A stretch of 57,162 nt of DNA from Rhodospirillales bacterium (GTDB lineage Bacteria > Pseudomonadota > Alphaproteobacteria > Rhodospirillales > 2-02-FULL-58-16). The notes beneath the pieces were generated by a model. The model saw only the letters and a program-made list of their open reading frames with translations, searched no databases and was not told the origin of the DNA. Shown here one piece after another: positions 2,095-47,778 of the stretch (position 1 is the stretch's first letter; each line of letters starts with the position of its first letter). The stretch is taken from contig DASCPW010000052.1 in NCBI GenBank assembly GCA_036012725.1, positions 1-57,162 on the forward strand, read 5' to 3'. Both the position numbers and the translations under genes were made by a program.

Positions 2095-2653
2095 CAGAGG
2101 CGGCAACGCCCAGCTGCCTGAAACAAGCAACCCTGATTTTAAGAAAGACCTAATGTCTAGGGGTTTTCCGCCGGCAGGCGGCAAGGGCGGCGGCTAAAGC
2201 GGTTTGCCAATGGTCAACGGTGAAACCAGATTTCGTCAGCAGCCGGGGCAAATCGAGAGCGTATTCCTTGGAGTAATCGGTTGTCACCGGCTTGGGAGTG
2301 AAAAACGGCATGGCTGCTCTCCTCTCTTTGGCTCACTTCCCGCCTGCGAGAAGCGTGGAGGAGAGCTTCTCCTGCGGACCCGGAGCAGCGCTTTTGGATG
2401 TGAAATTTCAGCGCTTCGATAGATGGCCCGGCCCGGTCATCGATAATACACAATTAATCTTATCAAGTATATAACTTATATGTTTCAATGTGTTGATGTG
2501 AATACACTATTCTTTTGAAAAAAGAATAATCTCTTCTATATGCAGAATATTTTCCTTGTTTAATTCTAATTTCACGGCATTAACGACGACAGGCTGGCAT
2601 TCCCTTTCGGCCGCCGCTAAAACTCATATCGGAATGTTACCCGTGAATGTGAG

Positions 2654-4783
<2,130 letters not shown>

Positions 4784-5330: not shown

Positions 5331-5762
5331 TTACTGATTTTCAGGCCCCTTGGCGGCGCCTTCGGCGGCCGCCAACATCGCTTCGGCCAGCTCCATCCGG
5401 CGCTCGGCATTCTTGGCCTCTTCGCTGCCGGCCTCGGCACCGTCCAGGTGTTCACGGGCGGCGTTGAGGCGCTCTTCGGTTTGCGCCCGATCGATCTCGG
5501 AGACCGGCACCGCTTCCTCGGCCAGCAGGACGCAGCCATCGGGCGAGACCTCGGCAAAACCACCGGCGACGAAGATGCGTTCGCCGACCTTGCCGCCCTG
5601 GTAAACATCGACAGTGCCGGGACGGACGGCGGAGATCAGCGGGGCGTGCCCCGGCAGGACTCCGAAGTCGCCCTCGCTTCCCGGAATCACCACCATTTCC
5701 ACAGGCTCGGCGAGAAGCAATTTCGCCGGCGTGATCAACTCGAATTCGACAATGTCCGCCAT
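5331..5762 (-). CDS. atpC: F0F1 ATP synthase subunit epsilon
   Basis: 143-aa ORF at the last position of the atpHAGDC operon, with a typical epsilon N-terminal beta-sandwich sequence (ELITPAKLLL...VVIPGSEGDFGVLPGHAPL). Confidence 0.93.
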   Translation of the reverse strand: MADIVEFELITPAKLLLAEPVEMVVIPGSEGDFGVLPGHAPLISAVRPGTVDVYQGGKVGERIFVAGGFAEVSPDGCVLLAEEAVPVSEIDRAQTEERLNAAREHLDGAEAGSEEAKNAERRMELAEAMLAAAEGAAKGPENQ

Positions 5763-5791
5763 TCATGTCTCCGTTTACGGAAAAGCCGACA

Positions 5792-8157
<2,366 letters not shown>

Positions 8158-16857: not shown

Positions 16858-17491
16858 CGTCAAAAAAATCAAACGCCGCGGCCTGATGCTGGTACTGTCG
16901 TCGCCGTCCGGCGCCGGTAAGTCAACCATATCGAGGGAACTTCTGAAGCGCACCGGCGACCTTGCCATGTCCGTCTCGGCGACCACCCGGCCTCCGCGTC
17001 CCGGCGAGGAAAACGGCAAGGATTACTTTTTTTTCAATAAGGACGAGTTTGACGGCATGGTCGCGGATGGCGAGTTTCTTGAGCATGCCGAGGTTTTCGA
17101 CAACTTTTATGGAACTCCAAAAAAACCGGTGGAAGCGGCCCTGGCCAGGGGCCAAGACGTTCTCTTTGACGTCGATTGGCAAGGCGAGCGGCAACTGAAG
17201 CAAAATGCCGTCGGCGATATTGTCAGCATTTTCATTTTACCGCCCTCGCGGGCCGAGTTGGAACGACGCCTGTATACCCGTGCCCAGGATTCCGAGGAGG
17301 TGGTGCGCAAGCGGATGGCAAAAGCGTTTGCCGAAATAAGCCACTGGCAAGATTACGATTACATTATCGTCAATGAGGTGGTCGAAAACAGCGTCGCCCA
17401 AGTCCAGGCCACCCTAACCGCCGAACGTCTGAAACAAGGCCGCCAGACCGGACTGGCCGATTTTGTCGGAGCGTTGCGGGAAAGCCGTTAA
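16850..17491 (+). CDS. gmk: guanylate kinase
   Basis: 213-aa ORF with the P-loop SSPSGAGKSTI and TTRPPRPGEENGKDYFF. Confidence 0.96.
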   Translation: MNDVKKIKRRGLMLVLSSPSGAGKSTISRELLKRTGDLAMSVSATTRPPRPGEENGKDYFFFNKDEFDGMVADGEFLEHAEVFDNFYGTPKKPVEAALARGQDVLFDVDWQGERQLKQNAVGDIVSIFILPPSRAELERRLYTRAQDSEEVVRKRMAKAFAEISHWQDYDYIIVNEVVENSVAQVQATLTAERLKQGRQTGLADFVGALRESR

Positions 17492-17583
17492 TATCTAATT
17501 TTTTGGGGAGTTCCTTAAGAGCCCGTCCGGGACGTTGCGGGAAATCATTTTTCGCTCTGCTTTCTTCGTTTATCGGTGGCGGA

Positions 17584-19581
17584 TCACTCGGGCAAGTTCA
17601 CCGCCCCGGCCAAGCTGGGGAAGCGGTGCGAGGCATGGGGAATGTCCATGGCGGCAACGAAATAGTCCTGAAATTCTGGCGCCGTCGCCGTTTCCACCTT
17701 TTCGACGCGTTTGACCAGGGCCTCGATCTCGGCCCGCGCCTGGCGGCTGAGCAAGGCGATGCGGGCACCGGTGCCGGCGGCGTTGCCGGCCGGGCCGACC
17801 TTTGCCAGATCGCAATCGGGGATCATCCCGATCACCATCGCGTATTTGGTGTCGATATAAGCGCCGAAAGCACCGGCCAAGAGGATATGCTCGACCCGCT
17901 CCACCCCCATCCTGTCCATCAGCAGGCGGACACCGGAATAACAGGCCGCCTTGGCCAATTGGATGGCGCGGATATCGGCCTGCGTCACCAGAAGTTCCGG
18001 CGGTCCGACATGGAGGAGATAATTGAAATTACGCCCTTCGGGAACCAAGTGCGCGGTCCGCTTGGCGTTGACGCCTTGGCCGTCGATGCGACCGCTGGCA
18101 TCGACAATTCCGGCCAAAAACATTTCCGCCACCGCCTCGATGATGCCGGAGCCGCAAATGCCGGTGACGCCGATACCGGCTATGGCTTCGGAAAAACCGG
18201 GATCATCGGACCATAGGTCCGACCCGATGACCTTGAAGCGCGGCGCCAAACTGTCGCGGTCGATGCGGACCCTCTCGATGGCGCCGGCGGCGGCGCGCTG
18301 GCCGCAACTGATCTGCGCGCCCTCGAAAGCGGGGCCGGTGGGACTGGAACAGGCAAGCAGACGGTGATTGTCGCCCAAGACGATCTCGGCGTTGGTGCCA
18401 ACATCGATGACGAGGGTCAGCTCGTCGGACCCGTGGGGCGATTCCGAAAGGATCACGCCGGCCGTGTCGGCGCCGACGAAACCGGCGATACAGGGCAGGA
18501 AATAGGCATGCGCTCCGGGATTGAGGCTCAATTTCAGGTCCCGGGCCATAAGGGTCACGCTTTCGTCCGTCACCATCGCGAAAGGGGCCTGGCCCAATTG
18601 CCTGGGATCGATGCCAAGCATCAAGTGATGCATGACCGGATTGCCGACAAAAGTAGCCTCGATAACGTCTGTTAAATCGATTCCGGCATCAAAGGCGGCG
18701 GTGGCGGCGAGCTTGGCGACGGCCTCGCGCACGGCAGTGGTCAGTTGCGGAGCCTGGTCCTGGTTTTGTTGCAGGTAGGAAAGCCGGCTCATCACGTCCT
18801 CGCCGAAACGGATTTGCGGATTCATTGCGCCGGCCGAACCGACCACCTCACCGGTGGCGAGATGGCAAAGATGGACGGCGACTGTAGTCGTGCCGATATC
18901 GACGGCGAGCCCGAACACATGGTCATGAAATCCCGGCCAGACGGCGGTAATGAGTTTACCCTCGCGGACGGCAACGGTGACCTTCCAGTCGCCGCCGTAG
19001 GTCTCGCCGCTACGCGCGGCTTGGGAAAGCGACCGCAAAACACCAGCGTCGCAATCCAGGTCTTCAAGCTGCCAGTTTTCGGCCAACGCCAGTTTCAGAC
19101 GGTTGAGATCGCTGCTCTGGTCATCCATGCCGGGCTTCGACATCTCGACATAATGAAGCTTGATCAGGGGGTCGATCTCCATGGCGCGGGTGTCGGCACG
19201 CTTACGCACCATCTGTTTGTGAATTTGGCTTTCCGCCGGCACGTCGATAACCACGTCACCGGTTAGGCGAGCGGCACAGCTTAACCGGTGGCCGGGGAGT
19301 AAGCCCTTTGTTTCGGCAAAATGTTTCTCGACTTCCCCAACCGGCGAGAGGTGACTTTTCTCCGACGTGATCGCGAATTTGGCGAAAACACCAGTGCTTA
19401 AACTAACTTGGCAACGCCCGCATATGCCCCGCCCGCCGCAAACGGAATCGATGTCGACACCAAGATCGCGCGCCGCCCTGAGCAAGGGCGTGCCCTGGGG
19501 AAAACAGCCACGCCGTCCCGACGGCGTAAAAACCACCAGGGCATCGTCGGCGGCGCCCCGCTTTGGCCTGGATTTCGCCAT
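17584..19581 (-). CDS. RACo-type corrinoid reductive activase (N-terminal plant-type 2Fe-2S ferredoxin + ASKHA/DUF4445 ATPase)
   Basis: 665-aa ORF. The ferredoxin cysteines are CGGRGICGRCQV plus RLSCAA. ASKHA phosphate motifs are GLAVDIGTTTVAV and LVIDVGTNAEIV, with PAFEGAQISCG also present. The start lies 3 nt after the stop of the upstream pterin methyltransferase. Confidence 0.85.
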   Translation of the reverse strand: MAKSRPKRGAADDALVVFTPSGRRGCFPQGTPLLRAARDLGVDIDSVCGGRGICGRCQVSLSTGVFAKFAITSEKSHLSPVGEVEKHFAETKGLLPGHRLSCAARLTGDVVIDVPAESQIHKQMVRKRADTRAMEIDPLIKLHYVEMSKPGMDDQSSDLNRLKLALAENWQLEDLDCDAGVLRSLSQAARSGETYGGDWKVTVAVREGKLITAVWPGFHDHVFGLAVDIGTTTVAVHLCHLATGEVVGSAGAMNPQIRFGEDVMSRLSYLQQNQDQAPQLTTAVREAVAKLAATAAFDAGIDLTDVIEATFVGNPVMHHLMLGIDPRQLGQAPFAMVTDESVTLMARDLKLSLNPGAHAYFLPCIAGFVGADTAGVILSESPHGSDELTLVIDVGTNAEIVLGDNHRLLACSSPTGPAFEGAQISCGQRAAAGAIERVRIDRDSLAPRFKVIGSDLWSDDPGFSEAIAGIGVTGICGSGIIEAVAEMFLAGIVDASGRIDGQGVNAKRTAHLVPEGRNFNYLLHVGPPELLVTQADIRAIQLAKAACYSGVRLLMDRMGVERVEHILLAGAFGAYIDTKYAMVIGMIPDCDLAKVGPAGNAAGTGARIALLSRQARAEIEALVKRVEKVETATAPEFQDYFVAAMDIPHASHRFPSLAGAVNLPE

Positions 19582-19584
19582 GCT

Positions 19585-20454
19585 CTAATTTTTTTCTTTT
19601 GCGGCTTTAATTTTTGCCCGCGCCCGCGTCATCCAGGCCATGCACTGTTGATCATGGCCCATCACCACATCGGCGGCCTTGATGGCGGTCATCAGATCTT
19701 CGTGTAACGGGTTGGCGATCGCCGAGGTCAGCCCGGCGGCCATCATCATGGCGATGAAAGCGGAGTTGAGGCCATGGCGTTCGGGAAGGCCAAAGCCGAC
19801 GTTCGACGCGCCACATGTCGTGTTGACCTTCAGTTCCTCGCGCACCCTTTGAGTTACGTCGAGAACCGCGCGTCCGGAGTCTTGGACCGCGCCGACGGGA
19901 AAAACCAATGGATCGATCACCACATCACAGGCGGCTATGCCGTGATCGGCGGCGCGCTCGACGATTTTTTTGGCCGCCTTGAAACGAACCTCCGGGTCCG
20001 GCGAAAGCCCCTCGGCGTCGTGCGCCATGCCAATGACGGCGGCGTCATACTTTTTGACCAGCGGCAGAACGCTTTCAAGACGCTCGTCTTCGCCGGTGAC
20101 CGAATTGACCAGGGCCTTTCCCTGGTAAACGGCAAGCCCCGCCGCCAGGGGTTCGTTACCGGATGAATCGATGGCCAACGGGACATCGGTCAGCGACTGC
20201 GCCAACTTGACGACATCCGCCAGGATTTTCTTTTCGTCGGCCATCGGCAGACCGGCATTGACATCGAGCATATCGGCGCCGGCTTCGATTTGGGCGAGCA
20301 CATCTTTCTCGACGCGGCTGTAATCTCCGGCCGACATTTCATCGGCCAGCATTTGACGGCCACTAGGATTGATGCGCTCGCCAATGACCACGAAAGAGCG
20401 ATCAAAGCCGATGACCACCTCCTTGGAAGCCGAGCTGATGACGGTGTCAGTCAT
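19585..20454 (-). CDS. pterin-binding methyltransferase (methyltetrahydrofolate:corrinoid methyltransferase family, MeTr/AcsE/CmuB/MtrH-like)
   Basis: 289-aa ORF with the DHPS-like TIM-barrel pattern IGERINPSGR, DMLDVNAG, LAIDSS, ALVNSVTGE and VIDPLV. An AAGGAG RBS lies 7 nt upstream of the ATG. Confidence 0.85.
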   Translation of the reverse strand: MTDTVISSASKEVVIGFDRSFVVIGERINPSGRQMLADEMSAGDYSRVEKDVLAQIEAGADMLDVNAGLPMADEKKILADVVKLAQSLTDVPLAIDSSGNEPLAAGLAVYQGKALVNSVTGEDERLESVLPLVKKYDAAVIGMAHDAEGLSPDPEVRFKAAKKIVERAADHGIAACDVVIDPLVFPVGAVQDSGRAVLDVTQRVREELKVNTTCGASNVGFGLPERHGLNSAFIAMMMAAGLTSAIANPLHEDLMTAIKAADVVMGHDQQCMAWMTRARAKIKAAKEKN

Positions 20455-20505
20455 GAAAGTCTCCTTTCATCCGATCATGAATTGAGATGAAAATCAATGG
20501 GATCA

Positions 20506-21348
20506 CTAATCTTTCGGTATTCGGTTGGCAATGACCCGGTAGAGTCCACCACCGATCAAGGCGCCGAGAATGGGTGCTAAAATATAGATGGTGAAAAACC
20601 CGCCACGCGGACCGGGAATGGCGATCTCGCCCCAGCCCAAGAAAAAAGAGACCAAGCGCGGCCCAAAGTCCCGGGCCGGGTTGATCCCGGCTTGCGTCAG
20701 TGGCGCTATCACCGAAATAATGGCGGCCACCCCAATGCCGATTATCACCGCCCCCATTGCCGACGGCGGACGCGCCGTGTTGCGGTGATGGGTCACCGTG
20801 GCGACCAAGAAGGCAAGCATCGCCGTTCCCACCATCTCCGCCAGGAATGCTGTGCTGGGAGTGATGATCCGCCATGCGTCCTCGGCCGTGCCGTATACGG
20901 CGGGGTTGGGAAAATACTCGCCGAAGAGCATGGCGCTGAGTTCGCTTCCCGGCCCCCCGCGCAAGAGTCCGTGCAGACGTTCAAACTCGATGATAGCCTC
21001 CGAGAACATGGCGTAGATGACCAGCGACGCGCAAGCCGCGCCGGCCGTCTGGGCAATCCAATAAGGGGCAACGCGGGAAAGCGGGAAGCCGTCGTAAGCA
21101 GCGGCGGCGACCGTGATCGCCGGGTTAATATGGGCCCCGGAAAGAGACGCCGAAGCATAAATCCCCAAACTCACCCCGACCGCCCAGACGACCGCCACTT
21201 GCCACAAACCCACCTGGGCGCCCGTCACCACGGCCGCGTTGACGGCGCCAACACCGAAGAAAACCAAAACGAAGGTGCCGAAAAACTCGCCCATCAGCGC
21301 CGGCCAGAGCGGTCCCGCCGCCACTCTCATCTGATCATTCCGCGGCAT
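20506..21348 (-). CDS. MIP-family channel, aquaglyceroporin (GlpF clade)
   Basis: 280-aa ORF with two NPA boxes (SGAHINPAITVA; AGINPARDFGPR). The Asp after the second NPAR and the GlpF-like GLWQVAV Trp are present, and the sequence can be aligned with E. coli GlpF along its whole length from memory. An alternative start exists at 21330. Confidence 0.9.
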   Translation of the reverse strand: MPRNDQMRVAAGPLWPALMGEFFGTFVLVFFGVGAVNAAVVTGAQVGLWQVAVVWAVGVSLGIYASASLSGAHINPAITVAAAAYDGFPLSRVAPYWIAQTAGAACASLVIYAMFSEAIIEFERLHGLLRGGPGSELSAMLFGEYFPNPAVYGTAEDAWRIITPSTAFLAEMVGTAMLAFLVATVTHHRNTARPPSAMGAVIIGIGVAAIISVIAPLTQAGINPARDFGPRLVSFFLGWGEIAIPGPRGGFFTIYILAPILGALIGGGLYRVIANRIPKD

Positions 21349-22483
21349 TCGGAAAGAAATCCTTTTCGGTAATTTCGGGGATGTCGATGGGATAGTCCCG
21401 GCACTGTTCGAAAGCCGTCAGCATGGCCCAAATATTTTTCATTGGCACGTCCTGATAGATCAGATGGGCCGGCTGGAAGATATAGCCGCCGCCGGGAGCA
21501 TAAGCCTTGATCAGCCTCCTCACATGCATGCGAATCTCCGGAAGGGTACCGTTCGGCAGGACTTGCTGAACGTCAAGTCCGCCCTTGAACATTACTTTGC
21601 CGCCCCATTTTCTCTTATTTTCCCATGGGTTTTTGAAACCTGCCACCGGCTGCATGGTCGACAGCATGGTGAATCCCATGTCGATGAAATCGCCCGCGAC
21701 CGCACTGAAGTCACCGCAGGAATGGTACATGAAGTTGGTTTCCGGGCTCTTCTCCTTCCAGGTGTCGATTAACCGTTTGATCCTCGGTCTGACGTGCTCG
21801 CGCCACATCTCCGGCGGGATCAGCAAGCCGTTTTGAACGCCGATGTCGTCGCCGATGCGGATGATGTCGGCGCCATGTTCGATGGCCCGTAAACCCAGTT
21901 CACTGTAGTAATCGGCCAAGCCGTCCAGCAACCGGCCGGCCCAGGCCGGATCATCGTAGAGATCGAGGATCATGTTTTGCATTCCCCGAAGGTGCGCCAT
22001 CGAGGCTTCGAACAGGGTGCTGGAGACATCGGCCAGGATGACGTGGCTGTCGCCGTAAATGGCGATGACTTCGTCGAGTTCCTTCATCCGCCTGGCTTCG
22101 CTCGGATCGGGCCACTGAAAATCATCCAGTTGGTCGCGGCTTTCGCCCAGGGGATGTTTTACCGGATTGTCGAACTGGTTTTGCCGTTCATAGGTGACCC
22201 CCCATTCGGATACGTAGGTGTCGCCTTCGTTCATGAGCCCGCCGCCAGCCATTTCCATCATCGAATTGATGCCCAGTTGTACAACGATCAGGTCGTTGCC
22301 GATCAGCTTCGACAAATGCCCTCCATAGCTCATGGATTCTCCGGGCTTCGGTTCATACCCATAGATTTCCGCGAGTTTGACGGCGGTGCTCGTGGCCCAG
22401 CGAATGCTCTGCGGAACCTTGTCCGGCTCTTCGAAGTTAAGGGCCTTGAAAAAGCGTTCCCTTGAGGTCATTTGCTTGCTCAT
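21335..22483 (-). CDS. URO-D-family (MtaA/MtbA/MtsA/CmuA-N-like) corrinoid-dependent methyltransferase
   Basis: The ORF runs 21335-22516. The ATG at 22483 (MSKQMTSRERFFKALNFEEPDKVP) overlaps the corrinoid-protein stop as ATGA. The sequence is URO-D-like and carries a YHSCGD (H-x-C-G) motif. Confidence 0.8.
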   Translation of the reverse strand: MSKQMTSRERFFKALNFEEPDKVPQSIRWATSTAVKLAEIYGYEPKPGESMSYGGHLSKLIGNDLIVVQLGINSMMEMAGGGLMNEGDTYVSEWGVTYERQNQFDNPVKHPLGESRDQLDDFQWPDPSEARRMKELDEVIAIYGDSHVILADVSSTLFEASMAHLRGMQNMILDLYDDPAWAGRLLDGLADYYSELGLRAIEHGADIIRIGDDIGVQNGLLIPPEMWREHVRPRIKRLIDTWKEKSPETNFMYHSCGDFSAVAGDFIDMGFTMLSTMQPVAGFKNPWENKRKWGGKVMFKGGLDVQQVLPNGTLPEIRMHVRRLIKAYAPGGGYIFQPAHLIYQDVPMKNIWAMLTAFEQCRDYPIDIPEITEKDFFPNAAE

Positions 22484-23214
22484 CCGACCACTCCACTGAT
22501 GAATCCGGGCTGGCATTCCTTGTCAATTAGCTTTTTCGCCACTTCGACGGCGCTGGCAGCGTCCGGCGCAAAACCATCGGCGCCCGATTGTTTGGCGTAG
22601 TCCTCGGTCACCGGAGCGCCACCGCACATGATTCTGAACGTGTTGCTTCTGGTCCCCGCCGCCTTAATAGCTTTGATCGTCTCACCTTGCATGGACATGG
22701 TCGTACTCAACAATGCCGACATGCAAAGGAGGTCCGCTTTAAGATCCCTGATCTTGTCGACGAATGTCTGGACATTGACGTTTACGCCAATGTCATGAAT
22801 TTTGAAACCGGCGCCTTCCAGCATCATGCCGACCATGTTCTTGCCAATATCGTGAAGGTCGCCCTGAACCGTTCCCAGAACGACGGTTCCCAAAGGCTCG
22901 TTGCCGAGCTTGGTCAATATCGGCCTTAGTACCTCCATCCCGGAGTGCATGGCCCGGGCGGTCAGAAGAACCTCCGGAATAAAAGCCTCGTTTTTTTTGA
23001 AACGCTCGCCAACGACGGCCAGGCCGGCTTGCAGCCCGTCCCGGAGAACGTCGAAAGGAGCGATACCCATATCGAGCGCCGCCTGCGTTGCTTCCGGCAC
23101 GGCGCCGGCATCGCCCACCTCGACAATGTCGGCAAGATTCTGTAACGCTTGCAGAACCCCGTCGTCACCCTCGACAATGCGCCGTTCACCACTAATCGGA
23201 TCGATAACTTCCAT
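22480..23214 (-). CDS. cobalamin-binding corrinoid protein (MtaC/MtbC/MtgC-like: helical cap + B12 Rossmann domain)
   Basis: 244-aa ORF with the DxHxxG motif in VQGDLHDIGKNMVG, SxL in CMSALLSTT and GG in MCGGAPV. The RBS is GAGGAAAAA-ATG. Confidence 0.9.
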   Translation of the reverse strand: MEVIDPISGERRIVEGDDGVLQALQNLADIVEVGDAGAVPEATQAALDMGIAPFDVLRDGLQAGLAVVGERFKKNEAFIPEVLLTARAMHSGMEVLRPILTKLGNEPLGTVVLGTVQGDLHDIGKNMVGMMLEGAGFKIHDIGVNVNVQTFVDKIRDLKADLLCMSALLSTTMSMQGETIKAIKAAGTRSNTFRIMCGGAPVTEDYAKQSGADGFAPDAASAVEVAKKLIDKECQPGFISGVVG

Positions 23215-23303
23215 TTTTTCCTCTACTGGCGAGGCTGCCGGGGTTCTAAAATTTCAACTCGGTCGAAAGCCAGCTGCTTCCGGACCCGGCACCCCAACCT
23301 CGT

Positions 23304-23669
23304 CTATTTATTCGCTCCTGGCTGGCTGTTGCCGGTATCAACATAAGGGTTTGAGAGATCGACAAGGGGTCCGCACAGTTCTGGATCACCTTGACAGCAA
23401 TCCCGGGTCAGGAAGATCAGGAGTTCCCGCGTTCCCTCCATATGGGCGGTATAAAAGATTTGCCTTTGTACCCGCCACGAAGTGAGCAATCCGGCCTCTT
23501 CGAGTTGCGAGAGATGGGAAGACAGCGTTGATGGCGGAACGTCCAGGCGGCCCGAGATGCCACCGGCGGAAAGACCGTCCGGACCTTCCTTGACGAGAAG
23601 ACGGAAGGCGGCCAAGCGGGTTTCCTGAGCGAGTGCCGCCAAAGCTTTCAATGCTTTTTTAGGTTCCAT
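23304..23669 (-). CDS. arsR: ArsR/SmtB-family metalloregulator with a C-terminal Cys91-Cys92-x6-Cys99 triad
   Basis: 121-aa ORF with a wHTH core (ALAQETRLAAFRLLVKEGPDGLSAGGISGRLDVPPSTLSSHLSQLEEAGLL). There is no CVC motif in the helix-3 region. The C-terminal FLTRDCCQGDPELC resembles the C-terminal As(III) site of the Acidithiobacillus-type ArsR. Confidence 0.85.
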   Translation of the reverse strand: MEPKKALKALAALAQETRLAAFRLLVKEGPDGLSAGGISGRLDVPPSTLSSHLSQLEEAGLLTSWRVQRQIFYTAHMEGTRELLIFLTRDCCQGDPELCGPLVDLSNPYVDTGNSQPGANK

Positions 23670-23689
23670 ATTTCGACAATTGCCGAAAT
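23670..23689. promoter_or_regulatory. 20-bp near-perfect palindrome ATTTCGACAATTGCCGAAAT abutting the arsR start codon; candidate ArsR operator
   Basis: 9 of 10 positions pair. It lies immediately 5' of the arsR ATG (23669-23667), inside an AT-rich divergent intergenic region. Confidence 0.4.
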
Positions 23690-24082
23690 TACGTATTAAT
23701 TCAAGAAATAAATGCTTGCATGTTTATGAAATCATCACCGGCCATCTGGTCAGTAATATCATTTTCGGTGCACGCCCCCTCATCGCCGTCATCTGCGGCG
23801 AAAAAGACGGGTCGACCGGCGCCTGACATCGGGCAAAAGAACTCCGGTCAAAGATAGCGCCAGAAAATCGGCTGGGTTGCGAGCAAAAACGACGCTATCT
23901 TGTTTGAGAATGCATTTTCCCTGGTTTCATACGGGAGGTGGCGACAACATCACCGGCATAGGCTTGCCGCCAAATCGACGCCGTAAATCGCGGTTGGATG
24001 GAACTTTTGCGGTGACCGGCAATCTCCGTGACCCAAAAAGTTTTTTTAAGACCGATCGAAACGGAAAGGTTTTGAGGAAGCA

Positions 24083-25402
24083 ATGGCGATCATATCCTTG
24101 ATCAAAAGCATTCTACCGAGCAGCTTGCTGGGCCGCTCGCTTTTGATCATCGTCATACCGCTGGTGCTTTTACAACTGGTTTCCGCTTTCATTTTCTTCG
24201 AAACCCATTGGGACAAGGTCAGTCTGCGCCTAGCCCGCGGCCTGGCCGGCGACATCACCTCGCTTATCGATTTATTGCACCAGCACCCGGAGCCGGAAAA
24301 CCGGGCTTGGATTTTTGATCTTGCCGCCACCCACATGGAGATCCAGGCAACGATGCGCAAGGATGAAATTCTTCCCAATGTCCAACCGGTAGCAGCCAAC
24401 ATGATGGAACGGACATTGATCAGAACGCTCAGGGAAAGACTGCACAAGCCCTTTCTGATTGATACCAAGTCATTAAACCGGCTGGTGATAGTCAAGGTGC
24501 AGCTTTCCGACGGCGTTATCGAGATGGTCACCCTTCGCAAACGGCTGTTCAGTTCGACGACTTACGTCTTCGTTTTGTGGATGGTGGGAACATCAATGAT
24601 TCTTTTCGGGGTCGCCCTCATCTTCATGCGCAACCAGGTAAAGCCGATCCGCAGATTGGCTAGCGCCGCGGATAATTTCGGCAAGGGCCGGGACGCGCCT
24701 ACTTTCAAGCCGGAAGGCGCCAAAGAGGTCCGCCAGGCGGCTTCCGCCTTTCTCGCCATGCGCGAACGGATTGCACGCCAGATCAGCCAGCGCACCGAGA
24801 TGCTGGCCGGCGTCTCCCACGATCTGCGCACTCCCTTGACGCGGATGAAGCTGCAACTGGCCCTTATCGGCGAGGCCGACGGCGTCAAGGAGCTACAGGA
24901 CGACGTCGCCGAGATGGAACATATGCTCGGAGGATATCTGGACTTTGCCCGCGGCGAAGGGGCGGAAACGCCGGAGCCCGCCAACCTCAACAAATTGCTC
25001 TCTGACATGGCGGCACAGGGACGGCGCAAGGGAGGAAAAATCGACCTGCATTGCGAAGGAGAGATCACCGTACCGCTCCGTCCCAATGCCTTCAAAAGGT
25101 GTGTGACCAACCTTATCGATAATGCCATCCGCTATGCCGACCATGTCGGCCTACGCGCCGGAAAGCGCAACGACGCCATCGAGATTACCATTGATGATGA
25201 CGGTCCCGGTATCCCGCCGGAGCAGCGCGAGGAGGTGTTCAAGCCGTTCTTCCGTCTCGACAGTTCCCGCAATCCGGGGACCGGCGGGGTTGGTTTGGGG
25301 CTGACCATCGCCCGCGACATCGTTCGCGGCCACGGCGGCGATATCGCTTTGAGTAAATCCCCCAATGGGGGCTTGAGGGCGAAGGTCCGGCTGCCGTTGT
25401 AA
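24083..25402 (+). CDS. EnvZ-like sensor histidine kinase (2 TM + HAMP + HisKA + HATPase), no cognate regulator adjacent
   Basis: 439-aa ORF with the H-box AGVSHDLRTPLTRM, N-box NLIDNAIRYA, G1 DDDGPGIP and G2 GTGGVGLGLTIA. Confidence 0.92.
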   Translation: MAIISLIKSILPSSLLGRSLLIIVIPLVLLQLVSAFIFFETHWDKVSLRLARGLAGDITSLIDLLHQHPEPENRAWIFDLAATHMEIQATMRKDEILPNVQPVAANMMERTLIRTLRERLHKPFLIDTKSLNRLVIVKVQLSDGVIEMVTLRKRLFSSTTYVFVLWMVGTSMILFGVALIFMRNQVKPIRRLASAADNFGKGRDAPTFKPEGAKEVRQAASAFLAMRERIARQISQRTEMLAGVSHDLRTPLTRMKLQLALIGEADGVKELQDDVAEMEHMLGGYLDFARGEGAETPEPANLNKLLSDMAAQGRRKGGKIDLHCEGEITVPLRPNAFKRCVTNLIDNAIRYADHVGLRAGKRNDAIEITIDDDGPGIPPEQREEVFKPFFRLDSSRNPGTGGVGLGLTIARDIVRGHGGDIALSKSPNGGLRAKVRLPL

Positions 25403-25410
25403 TACGGCAT

Positions 25411-26548
25411 TCACGGTTGCCGGTAGGTGATCCGGTAGATCGCCCCCAGGCGGTCATCGGAAACTAACAGCGAGCCGTCGGCAAGCTCCTTGACGTCGAC
25501 CGGCCGGCCCCAGGCCCTGCCCTTGACCAGCCAGCCCTCGGCAAAATGCTCAAAGGACAAGGCGCGAACCTGGCGGTCGAATTTCACCCGTGCCACCCGA
25601 TAGCCATCGGGAATAGTCCGGTTCCAGGAGCCGTGCTGGGCAACGAAGGCATCGTTCCGGTAGGCCTCGGAGAACATGGCGCCACGGTACAAAGTGAATG
25701 CCCAGGGCGGCGACATGGGCGCCGAAGCGAATTTCAGGCATGATCGACGGCGGCTGTTTTCGTCCCTTGAAGGCATCGGTGCGAACGTCGCCGCCGCCGT
25801 AGAAGGGAAATCCGAAATCAAGCCCCGGCCTTGGCGCGTGGTTGAGTTCGTCCGACGGAACGTCGTCACCCATATTGTCGGCGCCATTATCGGTAAAATG
25901 AAGCTCTCCGGTGGCGGGATGGAAGTCCATGCCGACCAAGTTGCGGACGCCGCCGGCATAGATATCCGCCTCGCCGCCGGCCGGGTAGAGGCGGATGATG
26001 GTACCCTCCAAACCGGAGACTTCGCAGATATTGCAGGGCGAACCGACCGCCACGTAAAGCTTGCCGTCGGGTCCGAAAGCGGTGTAGCGCCAGCCATGCC
26101 AAGGATTGTCGGGCAGCCCGTCGAAGAGAACTTGCGCGGTTGCCCGGGCCAGCGTTTGCAGATCGGCGGCCAGAAAACGGACGACGCGGTGCTGCTCGGC
26201 GACGTAGAGGTATCCGTCCCGTCAAACAATGCCGTTGGGGACATGCAGGCCGGACTTCACCTTGACCACCGTCTCGGCACGCTGGTCGCCGTCGGCATCG
26301 GCGGCGGCAAAAATGGAATTGCCGCGAGTGCCGACGAAAACCACCCCCAATTCCGCCGCCACCGCCATCGACCTGGCCCCGGGGATGCGCGCGTACATGC
26401 CGATCCCAAAACCCGGCGGCAAGGAGATGCCGTCAAATCGGGAAGCAGCGGCGGAATGGGCCGGAAGCGCCAGACCGAAGCAAACCACCAGCAGGATCAA
26501 GATCCTCTGCCAGGGGCGGACGGCAACGGCTGTGTTGGCGACGGTCAT
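25411..26548 (-). pseudogene. PQQ-dependent sugar (sorbosone/glucose) dehydrogenase family gene, inactivated
   Basis: Three ORF fragments (26222-26617, 25550-26053, 25411-26244) together spell one beta-propeller protein with a signal peptide (MTVANTAVAVRPWQRILILLVVCFGLALPAHS). It is interrupted by an in-frame TGA at 26222-26224 (NGIV*RDGYLYVAE) and a 1-nt frameshift near 25690 (ALGIHF/YRGAMFSEAY...HGSWNR). Confidence 0.8.
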
Positions 26549-26631
26549 GGCTAAAGATTTTGGAGCGCTCGCCCGAACGGGCGCAAGAGGCAGCGCCTCC
26601 GGGACAACAAAAACCAAGCGGGAAAAGGGTG

Positions 26632-28238: not shown

Positions 28239-28315
28239 GCGCCCGTAGCTCAATTGGATAGAGCGTCTGACTACGGATCAGGAGGTTGGGGGTTCGAGTC
28301 CTCCCGGGCGCGCCA
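28239..28315 (+). tRNA. tRNA-Arg (anticodon ACG), CCA encoded
   Basis: Folded by hand: a 7-bp perfect acceptor stem GCGCCCG/CGGGCGC, D stem GCTC/GAGC, anticodon stem TCTGA/TCAGG with loop CTACGGA, T arm GGGGG-TTCGAGT-CCTCC, discriminator G and CCA. Total 77 nt. Confidence 0.93.
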
Positions 28316-47129: not shown

Positions 47130-47778
47130 TCACCCCAAGGCGTTGAAGTCATCCAGCAACATGGCGATGCGGCCGGAATCCATTTGGTCCATGATGATCT
47201 GGGCGCGGCGGTTGGCGGCGACCAGGTCCATTTCCCGGATACGCTGCTTGACCCGGGGAATGTTGGCGGGAATCATCGAAAGCTCCCGAAAACCGAGGCC
47301 CAGAAGAAGGGCCGTATAACGGGGATCTCCCGCCATTTCTCCACAGATGGAGACAGGGATGCGGGCGTGAAGCGCGGCTTCGGCGGAGAACTGAATCAGC
47401 CGCAATACCGCCGGGTGCAGGGGGTCGTAAAGGTGCGCCACATGTTCGTCGCCGCGGTCGATGGCCAGCGTGTACATGGTCAGATCGTTTGACCCGACGG
47501 CAAAAAAAATCACTGGCCTGGGCCAGTGCGTCGGCCGAAAGCGCCGCCGCCGGACCCGGCATGGTCCCAGCCTTGGCGCGGAGACGGCCGATTTGCCTGC
47601 GGGCACGGCCGACGGCACCATTAAAGCGTTCGCATTCAGCCGCCACTTTGCCTGCGGCAGTACGATACTCGGGCACAGGAATAGCGCCGCTTTCACGAAA
47701 ATGGACGACTCCTTTCCCGATTCCCGGGGAAACGCCCAAGCCTTCAAAACTACGCTCCTTGCTTGGTTTCTTGGCCAT
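47130..47778 (-). pseudogene. ptsI: remnant of PTS enzyme I (ptsI): N-terminal ~70 aa fused to C-terminal ~140 aa, plus a frameshift in a T8/A8 run (47502-47509)
   Basis: One frame reads MAKKPSKERSFEGLGVSPGIGKGVVHF...ECERFNGAVGRARRQIGRLRAKAG|TMPGPAAALSADALAQASDFF. The next frame reads AVGSNDLTMYTLAIDRGDEHVAHLYDPLHPAVL...ICGEMAGDPRYTALLLGLGFRELSM. The phospho-His (GGRTSH) domain and most of the PEP-binding barrel are absent. Confidence 0.8.

Follow-up and report, generated by a model that had tools for sequence, protein, structure and literature searches.

Why does a repressor of an arsenite-sensing class stand at the head of an operon for corrinoid-dependent methyl transfer? This question is raised by a 57,162-nucleotide (nt) stretch of DNA from Rhodospirillales bacterium (assembly GCA_036012725.1, contig DASCPW010000052.1, positions 1 to 57,162; hereafter the window), in which arsR on the minus strand is followed by genes for a corrinoid protein, two methyltransferases, an aquaglyceroporin and a corrinoid activator. 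In the present study, we compared the regulator, its promoter and the associated genes with known systems and with related loci (labelled L001, L002 and so on). We consider it likely that this type-2 ArsR represses an arsR-led, leaderless six-gene transcript through a dyad, and that it would be released from DNA when As(III), or by analogy Sb(III) or trivalent monomethylarsenic (MAs(III)), binds at Cys91, Cys92 and Cys99.

The ArsR protein and its cysteine triad

The regulator gene and its candidate metalloid site were located as follows:

23304-23669, minus strand: arsR, encoding a winged-helix repressor of 121 aa from the ArsR/SmtB family, type-2 (AfArsR) class (open reading frame, Pfam, PDB and fold matches)
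23373-23399, minus strand: codons of Cys91-Cys92-x6-Cys99, a putative site for three-coordinate binding of As(III), Sb(III) or MAs(III) (invariant columns, predicted structure)

The arsR open reading frame (ORF) was intact, and its translation began at the first possible start codon. The C-terminal part of the translation, LIFLTRDCCQGDPELCGPLVDLSNPYVDTGNSQPGANK, matched the peptide quoted in the initial annotation, which had described a Cys91-Cys92-x6-Cys99 motif without a helix-3 CVC site. This description was borne out: the only cysteines were Cys91 (23397-23399), Cys92 (23394-23396) and Cys99 (23373-23375), in the context FLTRDCCQGDPELCGP, and the helix-turn-helix core contained none, so the R773-type ELCVCDL site is absent. 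Pfam recognized HTH_20 and HTH_5 in the protein.

The best PDB sequence match was AfArsR of Acidithiobacillus ferrooxidans (6J05; E 1e-16, 39% identity). In the alignment, LTRDCC fell on LTENCC, Cys91-Cys92 on Cys95-Cys96, and Cys99 on Cys102 via a one-residue gap. The type-2 site of AfArsR consists of Cys95, Cys96 and Cys102 at the ends of the C-terminal helices (PMC11868830). Both proteins share the MEP... N-terminus, the LTxxCC context, a vicinal pair at the end of the last helix with a third cysteine shortly after it, and a DNA-binding core free of cysteine. They differ in the spacing, which is CC-x6-C in the window protein and CC-x5-C in AfArsR, and in their cargo, since AfArsR regulates ars genes whereas the window ArsR heads a corrinoid operon.

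An AlphaFold (AF2) model built from 36 homologues reached a predicted local distance difference test (pLDDT) score of 85 overall and >89 up to residue 90. Its elements (H3-13, H16-28, H35-42, H46-58, E62-67, E70-75, H77-91) corresponded to the canonical alpha1-alpha5 winged helix. In this model, alpha5 (residues 77-91) terminated exactly at the vicinal cysteine pair, placing the triad directly past the last helix. The top Foldseek match was again 6J05 (template-modelling score 0.86-0.92, root-mean-square deviation 1.3-1.9 A), with HlyU, SrnR, SqrR, BigR and CzrA ranking behind it.

The triad was strongly conserved. Of the 120 best homologues in the database, which were 55-99% identical and came mostly from Rhodospirillales and Hyphomicrobiales, 119 had CC-x6-C in the context DCCxGxPExC. 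Four additional homologues of 47-52% identity likewise had CC-x6-C, and all three cysteines formed invariant columns in the 36-sequence alignment. Judged from these alignments, the conservation is far beyond chance. The gene as a whole appeared to be under purifying selection, with a dN/dS of 0.19 against the L001 orthologue.

The extra spacer residue pointed out in the initial annotation is real when measured against AfArsR, but it is the norm of the alphaproteobacterial branch and no peculiarity of this protein. RpArsR1 and RpArsR2 of Rhodopseudomonas palustris CGA009 (AfArsR-type, clade III), compared by description only, carry Cys91-Cys92 and Cys99 and were the tightest As(III) binders of nine ArsR proteins tested, with a KA >1e7 (PMC13236881). 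Because they bind As(III) with the same cysteine numbering, the x6 spacing is a known, functional variant. Unlike the window ArsR, which has three cysteines only, both possess an additional Cys109-Cys110 pair and belong to ars clusters.

Other metalloid-sensing classes were examined and rejected. The type-1 (R773) site is ELCVCDLC, whose Cys32, Cys34 and Cys37 belong to the DNA-binding helix, and the type-3 (CgArsR) site is formed by Cys15-Cys16 together with Cys55 of the other subunit. Both patterns are impossible in a protein with no cysteine before residue 91. The MAs(III)-selective SpArsR of Shewanella putrefaciens 200 shares the AfArsR-like fold and the vicinal pair, but it lacks the third cysteine and ignores As(III) (PMC11868830). 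In the window ArsR, the third cysteine (Cys99) is present and invariant, so membership of the SpArsR type was dismissed, and As(III) as well as MAs(III) sensing would be expected. By sequence and predicted fold, the window ArsR is thus a typical arsenite repressor of the known type-2 (AfArsR) class.

The genes beside its homologues were then compared. Canonical ars operons occupied all nine neighbourhoods of homologues with 47-70% identity (L002, L011, L012, L014, L100 and L007-L010), a count that leaves out P0003, P0005 and P0007 (70-73% identity, the nearest after the orthologues). Four of the loci had been added as ars contexts from a contig search with the single ArsR sequence, which used exact peptide patterns and reaches close relatives only. 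The arrangements were as follows:

L002/L003: arsR-arsC-MIP, with arsC of the low-molecular-weight phosphatase (LMWP) type
L011: arsR-arsC-arsC-acr3, beside aioAB, arsM and arsP
L012/L013 (Nitrospirillum): arsH-arsR-arsC-acr3
L014: arsR-glyoxalase-arsC-acr3
L100 (Azospirillum plasmid): arsR-arsC-arsC-ACR3, from the RefSeq annotation
L007-L010 (one gammaproteobacterial metagenome-assembled genome among them): arsR-arsC-acr3 or arsR-arsC-MIP, with DCCQGDPE[LI]C in all

The window arsR and its two orthologous copies are the exception to this context. The closest comparison is with the alphaproteobacterial arsR-arsC(LMWP)-aqpS/acr3 operons (L002, L008, L009 and L100), which we take to be of the Sinorhizobium meliloti type. 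Their regulators are 47-70% identical to the window ArsR and share DCCQGxPExC, the promoter layout and the dyad, and a channel of the MIP family occurs in both kinds of operon. The window operon differs in lacking arsC, acr3 and arsH, and its MIP is GlpF-like and unrelated to the ~235-aa channel of the ars operons. Collectively, the class assignment, the invariance of the triad among orthologues and more distant homologues, and the ars context of the relatives supported the proposal in the initial annotation that the protein is a trivalent-metalloid sensor rather than a generic repressor. In terms of sequence evidence, the triad backs As(III)/MAs(III) sensing by this protein strongly, and a metalloid role of the corrinoid operon only indirectly.

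Putative promoter and operator, and the proposed six-gene operon

Comparison of upstream regions placed two elements directly before arsR:

23670-23689, minus strand: 20-bp imperfect dyad ATTTCGGCAATTGTCGAAAT, a putative ArsR operator over the -10 region, abutting the arsR ATG
23676-23704, minus strand: putative arsR promoter, with -35 TTGAAT (23699-23704), a 17-nt spacer, a -10-like AATTGT (23676-23681) and 6 nt to the ATG

The dyad was the sole match in the window at up to 3 mismatches, with 0.02 expected, and it was identical upstream of arsR in L001. An ATTTCG..CGAAAT dyad was equally placed before arsR in L002, L014 and L100, and it was degenerate in L011. The ten compared arsR upstream regions had a common layout of TTGnnn, 17 nt, a hexamer, 6 or 7 nt and ATG, as exemplified by L014 (ATTTCGATATTCGTCGAAAT), L100 (AATTCGACTATCGTCGAAAT) and L002 (ATTTCGATAATTAAGAAAAT). 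No Shine-Dalgarno sequence was found before the arsR ATG, either in the window or in the compared ars operons; thus the transcript is probably leaderless. We infer that the arsR promoter is leaderless, would be occluded by ArsR and belongs to the same operator class as those of true ars operons.

A search of the window for further ArsR targets returned no other dyad within the same mismatch limit; two TTCG-N8-CGAA half-site matches (20089 and 32598) were discarded, being intragenic and in chance-level number. It was also observed that the AfArsR-type clade examined (L001, L002, L007-L011, L014 and L100) appears to use leaderless arsR transcripts, with a TTGnnn -35 element at 29-30 nt before the ATG, an A/T-rich dyad over the -10 region and the start, and no Shine-Dalgarno sequence. 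In the public gene calls, the L001 arsR is shortened to an internal start (5520 vs 5547; 112 aa vs 121), and the L004 arsR (5481-5846) is uncalled though 100% identical to the window gene.

Downstream of arsR, the operon continues in the same direction:

23215-23303, minus strand: 89-nt spacer from arsR to the corrinoid gene; a ribosome-binding site (GAGGAA) is present, an intrinsic terminator is not
22480-23214, minus strand: corrinoid (B12-binding) protein, MtgC/MtbC-like (Pfam B12-binding_2 and B12-binding)
21335-22483, minus strand: corrinoid methyltransferase of the MtaA/CmuA superfamily, with the uroporphyrinogen decarboxylase (URO-D) fold, 393-aa ORF (Pfam URO-D)
20506-21348, minus strand: GlpF-like aquaglyceroporin (MIP) with NPA/NPARD motifs (Pfam MIP)
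19585-20454, minus strand: methyl-tetrahydrofolate:corrinoid methyltransferase, pterin-binding, MeTr/CmuB-like (NF005719 331.2 bits, cut-off 259; Pfam Pterin_bind)
17584-19581, minus strand: ATP-dependent corrinoid-protein activator of the reductive RACo type, its N-terminus bearing a 2Fe-2S domain (matches to Pfam Fer2, RACo_linker, Raco_middle and RACo_C_ter; AcsV 401 bits)

The corrinoid protein scored 182 bits against pyl_corrinoid and 202 bits against MtgC of NCBIfam, both under the equivalog cut-offs. From arsR to the RACo gene, the junctions were, in order, the 89-nt spacer, overlaps of 4 nt and 14 nt, and gaps of 51 nt and 3 nt; the 4-nt overlap of the methyltransferase start with the corrinoid stop was also present in the L004 gene call. 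In a scan of 17400-24200, the 89-nt spacer showed nothing that resembled a terminator or a promoter. From this tight packing, co-transcription of the six genes is inferred.

The arrangement recurred in both related contigs. L004 showed the order histidine kinase / arsR-corrinoid-URO-D-MIP-MeTr-RACo / gmk, with arsR identical to the window gene at 366 of 366 positions, and L001, whose ArsR is 86% identical, contained arsR with the beginning of the corrinoid gene behind it. The spacer sequence differs in L001 while the arsR promoter is kept.

These features are consistent with the following mechanism. In the absence of inducer, the ArsR homodimer would sit on the ATTTCGGCAATTGTCGAAAT dyad over the -10 region and the transcript start, silencing its own gene together with the genes for the corrinoid protein, the zinc-type MtaA/CmuA-family methyltransferase, the GlpF-like channel, MeTr and RACo. 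A trivalent metalloid (As(III), and probably also Sb(III) and MAs(III)) would be bound at the alpha5 terminus through the Cys91, Cys92 and Cys99 thiolates, and its binding would distort the dimer and lead to DNA release. Metalloid binding and derepression are thus what the homology of this ArsR predicts. In short, a standard arsenite sensor appears to have passed from the control of ars genes to that of a B12/folate methyl-transfer module.

The surrounding window is core chromosome, carrying the atp operon, uvrB, priA, xerC, gmk, trpBA, addAB, chvG and pckA. Its UvrB, at 81-82% to named metagenome-assembled genomes, places the host among uncultured marine Rhodospirillales-like Alphaproteobacteria and no more finely than that. 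An Rfam scan of the window detected no cobalamin or other riboswitch, and its sole match was one tRNA (28239-28312, plus strand). Two side observations concern other genes of the window. The glucose/sorbosone-dehydrogenase-like (GSDH) gene beside the histidine kinase (25411-26617, minus strand) is interrupted by an in-frame stop near 26222 and changes frame near 25695. Its L001 orthologue is intact (2279-3415, 378 aa, Pfam GSDH), and the gene is also split in the near-identical contig L004, so a pseudogene is likelier than a read error. A 205-aa ORF (47130-47747, minus strand) matched only the last ~100 positions of the C-terminal domain of phosphoenolpyruvate-utilising enzymes. It lies beside a RapZ/HPr-kinase-type cluster and the chvG-like kinase, and it may be a truncated ptsP/ptsI-like gene.

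The methyltransferase subfamily and its channels

The methyltransferase of the operon scored 98 bits against Pfam URO-D but only 77.9 bits against TIGR01463 (mtaA_cmuA), whose cut-off is 235. Assignment of a substrate by homology failed, the NCBIfam equivalogs MtaA, MtbA and HemE all scoring far under their cut-offs. The sole PDB match was MtaA (4AY7), a methylcobalamin:coenzyme M methyltransferase that shares the URO-D fold. Although the match was weak (E 2e-5), the His-x-Cys zinc motifs aligned. The subfamily invariants His265-x-Cys267...His351 (numbering of the 393-aa ORF) fell on the His-x-Cys...Cys zinc ligands of MtaA, with His351 at the third-ligand position in place of the MtaA cysteine; the subfamily has a single invariant cysteine. 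From these alignments, we read the protein as a member of the MtaA/CmuA superfamily that belongs to a separate subfamily. The operon also resembles the CmuA/CmuB chloromethane pathway in its three-component logic of methyltransferase, corrinoid protein and pterin-binding methyltransferase. In contrast to CmuA, the window methyltransferase is a separate protein and not a fusion, and its operon additionally includes RACo and an aquaglyceroporin.

The subfamily is rare. Two close relatives were found (99% and 72% identity), and the others, of ~45-55% identity, came from Nitrospirota- and Desulfobacterales-type metagenomes. Channels were recurrent neighbours. The window MIP had E. coli GlpF (1FX8) as its best PDB match over the full length (E 1e-46), with a selectivity filter of Trp/Ile/Ala/Arg vs Trp48/Gly191/Phe200/Arg206 in GlpF, and a MIP of the same type recurred in the Nitrospirota methyltransferase cluster L006 (37% identity). 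A short (~230 aa) NPA/NPQ MIP stood beside methyltransferase relatives in L005, L020, L026, L033, L102 and L104. Full-length members of the short type shared 75-99% identity with one another, and the type was 36-39% identical to the MIP of L002, an arsR-arsC-MIP operon. On gene-context evidence, the methyltransferase subfamily is repeatedly tied, across phyla, to MIPs of two unrelated kinds; the ars and MIP neighbourhood counts behind this are small and do not amount to a controlled enrichment test. The idea that arsR and the MIP of the window are the remnants of an arsR...aqpS operon into which corrinoid genes were inserted was rejected, as the window MIP is GlpF-like and matches the L002 MIP merely over 49 residues of the NPA region.

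Arsenic genes were found near some of these loci. In L034 (9016-17847), arsR (CVC type)-permease-arsC-arsD comes after a URO-D-corrinoid-MFS-pterin methyltransferase-CobW cluster of the same strand. Between the cluster and the ars operon of this contig lies a 99-aa fragment of a second URO-D gene, and its ArsC is of the LMWP type. In L015, acr3 and arsA lie 8 kb downstream of the methyltransferase cluster. Other loci of the family showed no arsenic link; the neighbours there were transporters of the MFS or ABC type, a sigma-54 activator, or a Psr/Phs-like cytoplasmic molybdoenzyme accompanied by Fe-S proteins.

The anaerobe-type relatives had a module of their own, conserved across metagenome contigs (L020 708-5827; L033 2-3781; L102 465-6622; L104 494-4509; L015 10001-13272). 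It consists of a corrinoid protein, a 4Fe-4S protein, a pterin methyltransferase, the URO-D methyltransferase, a 704-aa Psr/Phs-like molybdopterin oxidoreductase without a twin-arginine translocation signal, and the short NPA/NPQ MIP. Identification of the 704-aa molybdoenzyme as ArrA was rejected (217 bits vs a cut-off of 1600); its best match, PhsA-like, likewise stayed under the cut-off (460 vs 694), and the enzyme was left unassigned. The layout suggests that a small neutral oxidised methyl compound may be reduced and then demethylated. It was further observed that L005 pairs an alphaproteobacterial-type methyltransferase (72% identical) with an anaerobe-type short MIP (75% identity), a pairing that suggests horizontal mobility of the module. 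The corrinoid protein of L005 (738-1100) is in frame for its last ~40 residues only, so the gene is truncated or the contig misassembled.

Competing explanations and significance

Several observations weigh against an arsenite-responsive six-gene operon. The genes that would normally account for an arsenite sensor are absent: none of the ~40 ORFs scanned in the 57-kb window is an ars gene, and the arsenic-resistance genes that type-2 ArsR proteins control (arsC, arsB/acr3, arsH) do not lie under this one. The protein scored 53.2 bits (E 1.9e-14) against the NCBIfam metalloregulator model NF033788 (HTH_metalloreg, ArsR/SmtB), just under the cut-off of 55, and it lacks the extra C-terminal cysteine pairs of many relatives. 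A strict sigma-70 consensus scan of 17400-24200 called no promoter, and because of this the promoter proposal rests on the comparison of upstream regions. The spacer at 23215-23303 forms hairpins (-32 kcal/mol) without a U tract, which could attenuate read-through. Finally, a sigma-54 activator, not ArsR, controls the clusters of the Nitrospirota-type relatives, so the link of ArsR to the module is lineage-specific (the window and two related contigs).

Two further readings concern what the operon acts on. One extends the proposed repression mechanism and is compatible with it: the operon itself would move methyl groups between arsenicals and tetrahydrofolate (THF), which we regard as possible, though not probable. 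For demethylation, monomethylarsenic (MAs), dimethylarsenic (DMAs) or trimethylarsine oxide (TMAsO) would enter via the aquaglyceroporin, their methyl groups would pass to the corrinoid and on to THF, and the freed As(III) would induce the operon and exit through the channel, making the system a non-oxidative demethylase that feeds one-carbon oxidation. For methylation, methyl groups would run from methyl-THF via the corrinoid to As(III), as a B12-dependent alternative to the S-adenosylmethionine (SAM) enzyme ArsM. In both cases, the His-Cys-His MtaA-like subfamily would be the catalytic part across Alphaproteobacteria, Nitrospirota and Desulfobacterota-type anaerobes. An arsenite-class sensor at the operon head and a GlpF-like aquaglyceroporin inside the operon fit such a role, GlpF-type channels being conductors of As(OH)3. 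So do the cross-phylum linkage of the methyltransferase to two unrelated MIP types, the resemblance of the short type to an ars-operon channel, and the ars genes of L034 and L015. In addition, MtaA methylates arsenic from methylcobalamin as an unregulated side reaction (PMC13262295), and the DMAs-demethylating enzymes are undetermined both in paddy-soil methanogens (PMC10579292) and in marine SAR11 (PMC6426599). However, the methyltransferase has one invariant cysteine in a His-x-Cys...His zinc-type site and no cysteine pair or triad. All As(III)-binding enzymes known to us use such a pair or triad. Several loci of the family have no arsenic gene nearby, and sulfur or other small methylated compounds fit them equally well; moreover, the window channel is unrelated to the ars-operon channel, ArsR control is confined to one lineage, and the neighbourhood counts have the limits given above. 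The other reading takes the operon as a methylotrophy module for a small neutral methyl donor other than a metalloid, such as methyl halides, dimethylsulfide (DMS) or methanethiol, DMS derived from dimethylsulfoxide, or methanol. ArsR would then be either a general thiol-reactive or stress sensor, or an arsenite sensor that ties the operon to an 'arsenic stimulon' with arsenic as no substrate. We hold this to be rather unlikely, even though the set of parts is like the one for chloromethane utilisation, comprising a methyltransferase of the MtaA/CmuA family together with a corrinoid protein and a methyl-THF methyltransferase that binds pterin, the anaerobic relatives adjoin a cytoplasmic Psr/Phs-like molybdoenzyme and Fe-S proteins, and the genome background is that of an uncultured marine Rhodospirillales-like alphaproteobacterium. 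Agrobacterium tumefaciens ArsR proteins are also reported to control non-arsenic genes (PMC13236881), in favour of this reading. Against it, the scores for the MtaA/CmuA/MtbA family lie so far under the cut-offs that no substrate is transferable by homology, and the ArsR is 62-73% identical to true ars-operon regulators, with site and operator unchanged. We also know of no precedent for a type-2 ArsR that senses anything other than trivalent arsenicals or antimonite, which counts against a methylotrophic role.

The remaining explanations concern the regulator itself. Sensors of the BigR/SqrR type have one cysteine in alpha2 and one in alpha5, bridged as a di- or polysulfide, and the three cysteines of the window ArsR might likewise form a redox or persulfide switch, with a disulfide or polysulfide bridge in the manner of BigR, SqrR and HlyU. 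Vicinal thiols are oxidisable, and HlyU, BigR and SqrR were among the weaker sequence and fold matches. But the alpha2 partner is missing, as no cysteine occurs before residue 91, the NCBIfam BigR model (NF040642) gave 26.9 bits vs a cut-off of 155, and the nearest relatives all regulate ars operons; we rejected membership of this class and consider such a switch highly improbable. It is also improbable that arsR is the stranded remnant of a lost ars operon, regulating only itself while the corrinoid genes use their own promoter in or after the 89-nt spacer. The stable spacer hairpin would suit this history, and with ars genes behind arsR in each of the nine homologue neighbourhoods, a replacement must have taken place here. 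On the other side, the spacer contains no terminator-like or promoter-like site and differs in sequence in L001, where the arsR promoter is conserved. Adjacency and orientation of arsR and the corrinoid gene have been kept at 86% protein identity under purifying selection, and the remaining genes are translationally coupled. Repression by a type-2 ArsR, relieved by trivalent metalloids, is the account that we favour over these alternatives.

The nearest precedent for an ArsR before a corrinoid system is the ArsR-like regulator linked to hgcAB in Pseudodesulfovibrio mercurii ND132, which lies upstream of, and is co-transcribed with, genes for corrinoid-dependent methyl transfer and is arsenic-responsive (bioRxiv 10.1101/2022.10.17.512643). 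It differs in being SahR-related and responsive to S-adenosylhomocysteine, and its cargo is HgcA/HgcB instead of an MtaA-family methyltransferase, MeTr and RACo. A literature search on ArsR, corrinoid methyltransferases and arsenic returned the hgcAB study, work on mercury methylators and unrelated surveys, none with the present arrangement, and a search combining corrinoid proteins, uroporphyrinogen-decarboxylase-family methyltransferases and aquaporins yielded no paper with all three. Taken as a protein, the window ArsR adds one member to a known class; taken as a system, the coupling of an AfArsR-class sensor to a corrinoid/folate methyl-transfer operon with a built-in aquaglyceroporin is a new variation.

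To our knowledge, all characterised arsenic methylation proceeds via the SAM enzyme ArsM and all characterised demethylation via the dioxygenase ArsI. For cobalamin-dependent arsenic methylation, the only known case is a side reaction of methanogen MtaA that is unregulated (PMC13262295). DMAs-demethylating enzymes are undetermined in anoxic soils (PMC10579292), as are those by which marine bacterioplankton route methyl groups from DMAs into a THF-linked pathway (PMC6426599). A corrinoid operon under a predicted arsenite sensor is a candidate for B12-dependent arsenic methylation or demethylation, and it forms a compact, clonable locus. Should its substrate prove to be a different one, the operon would still be a clear example of ArsR control over metabolism unrelated to arsenic.

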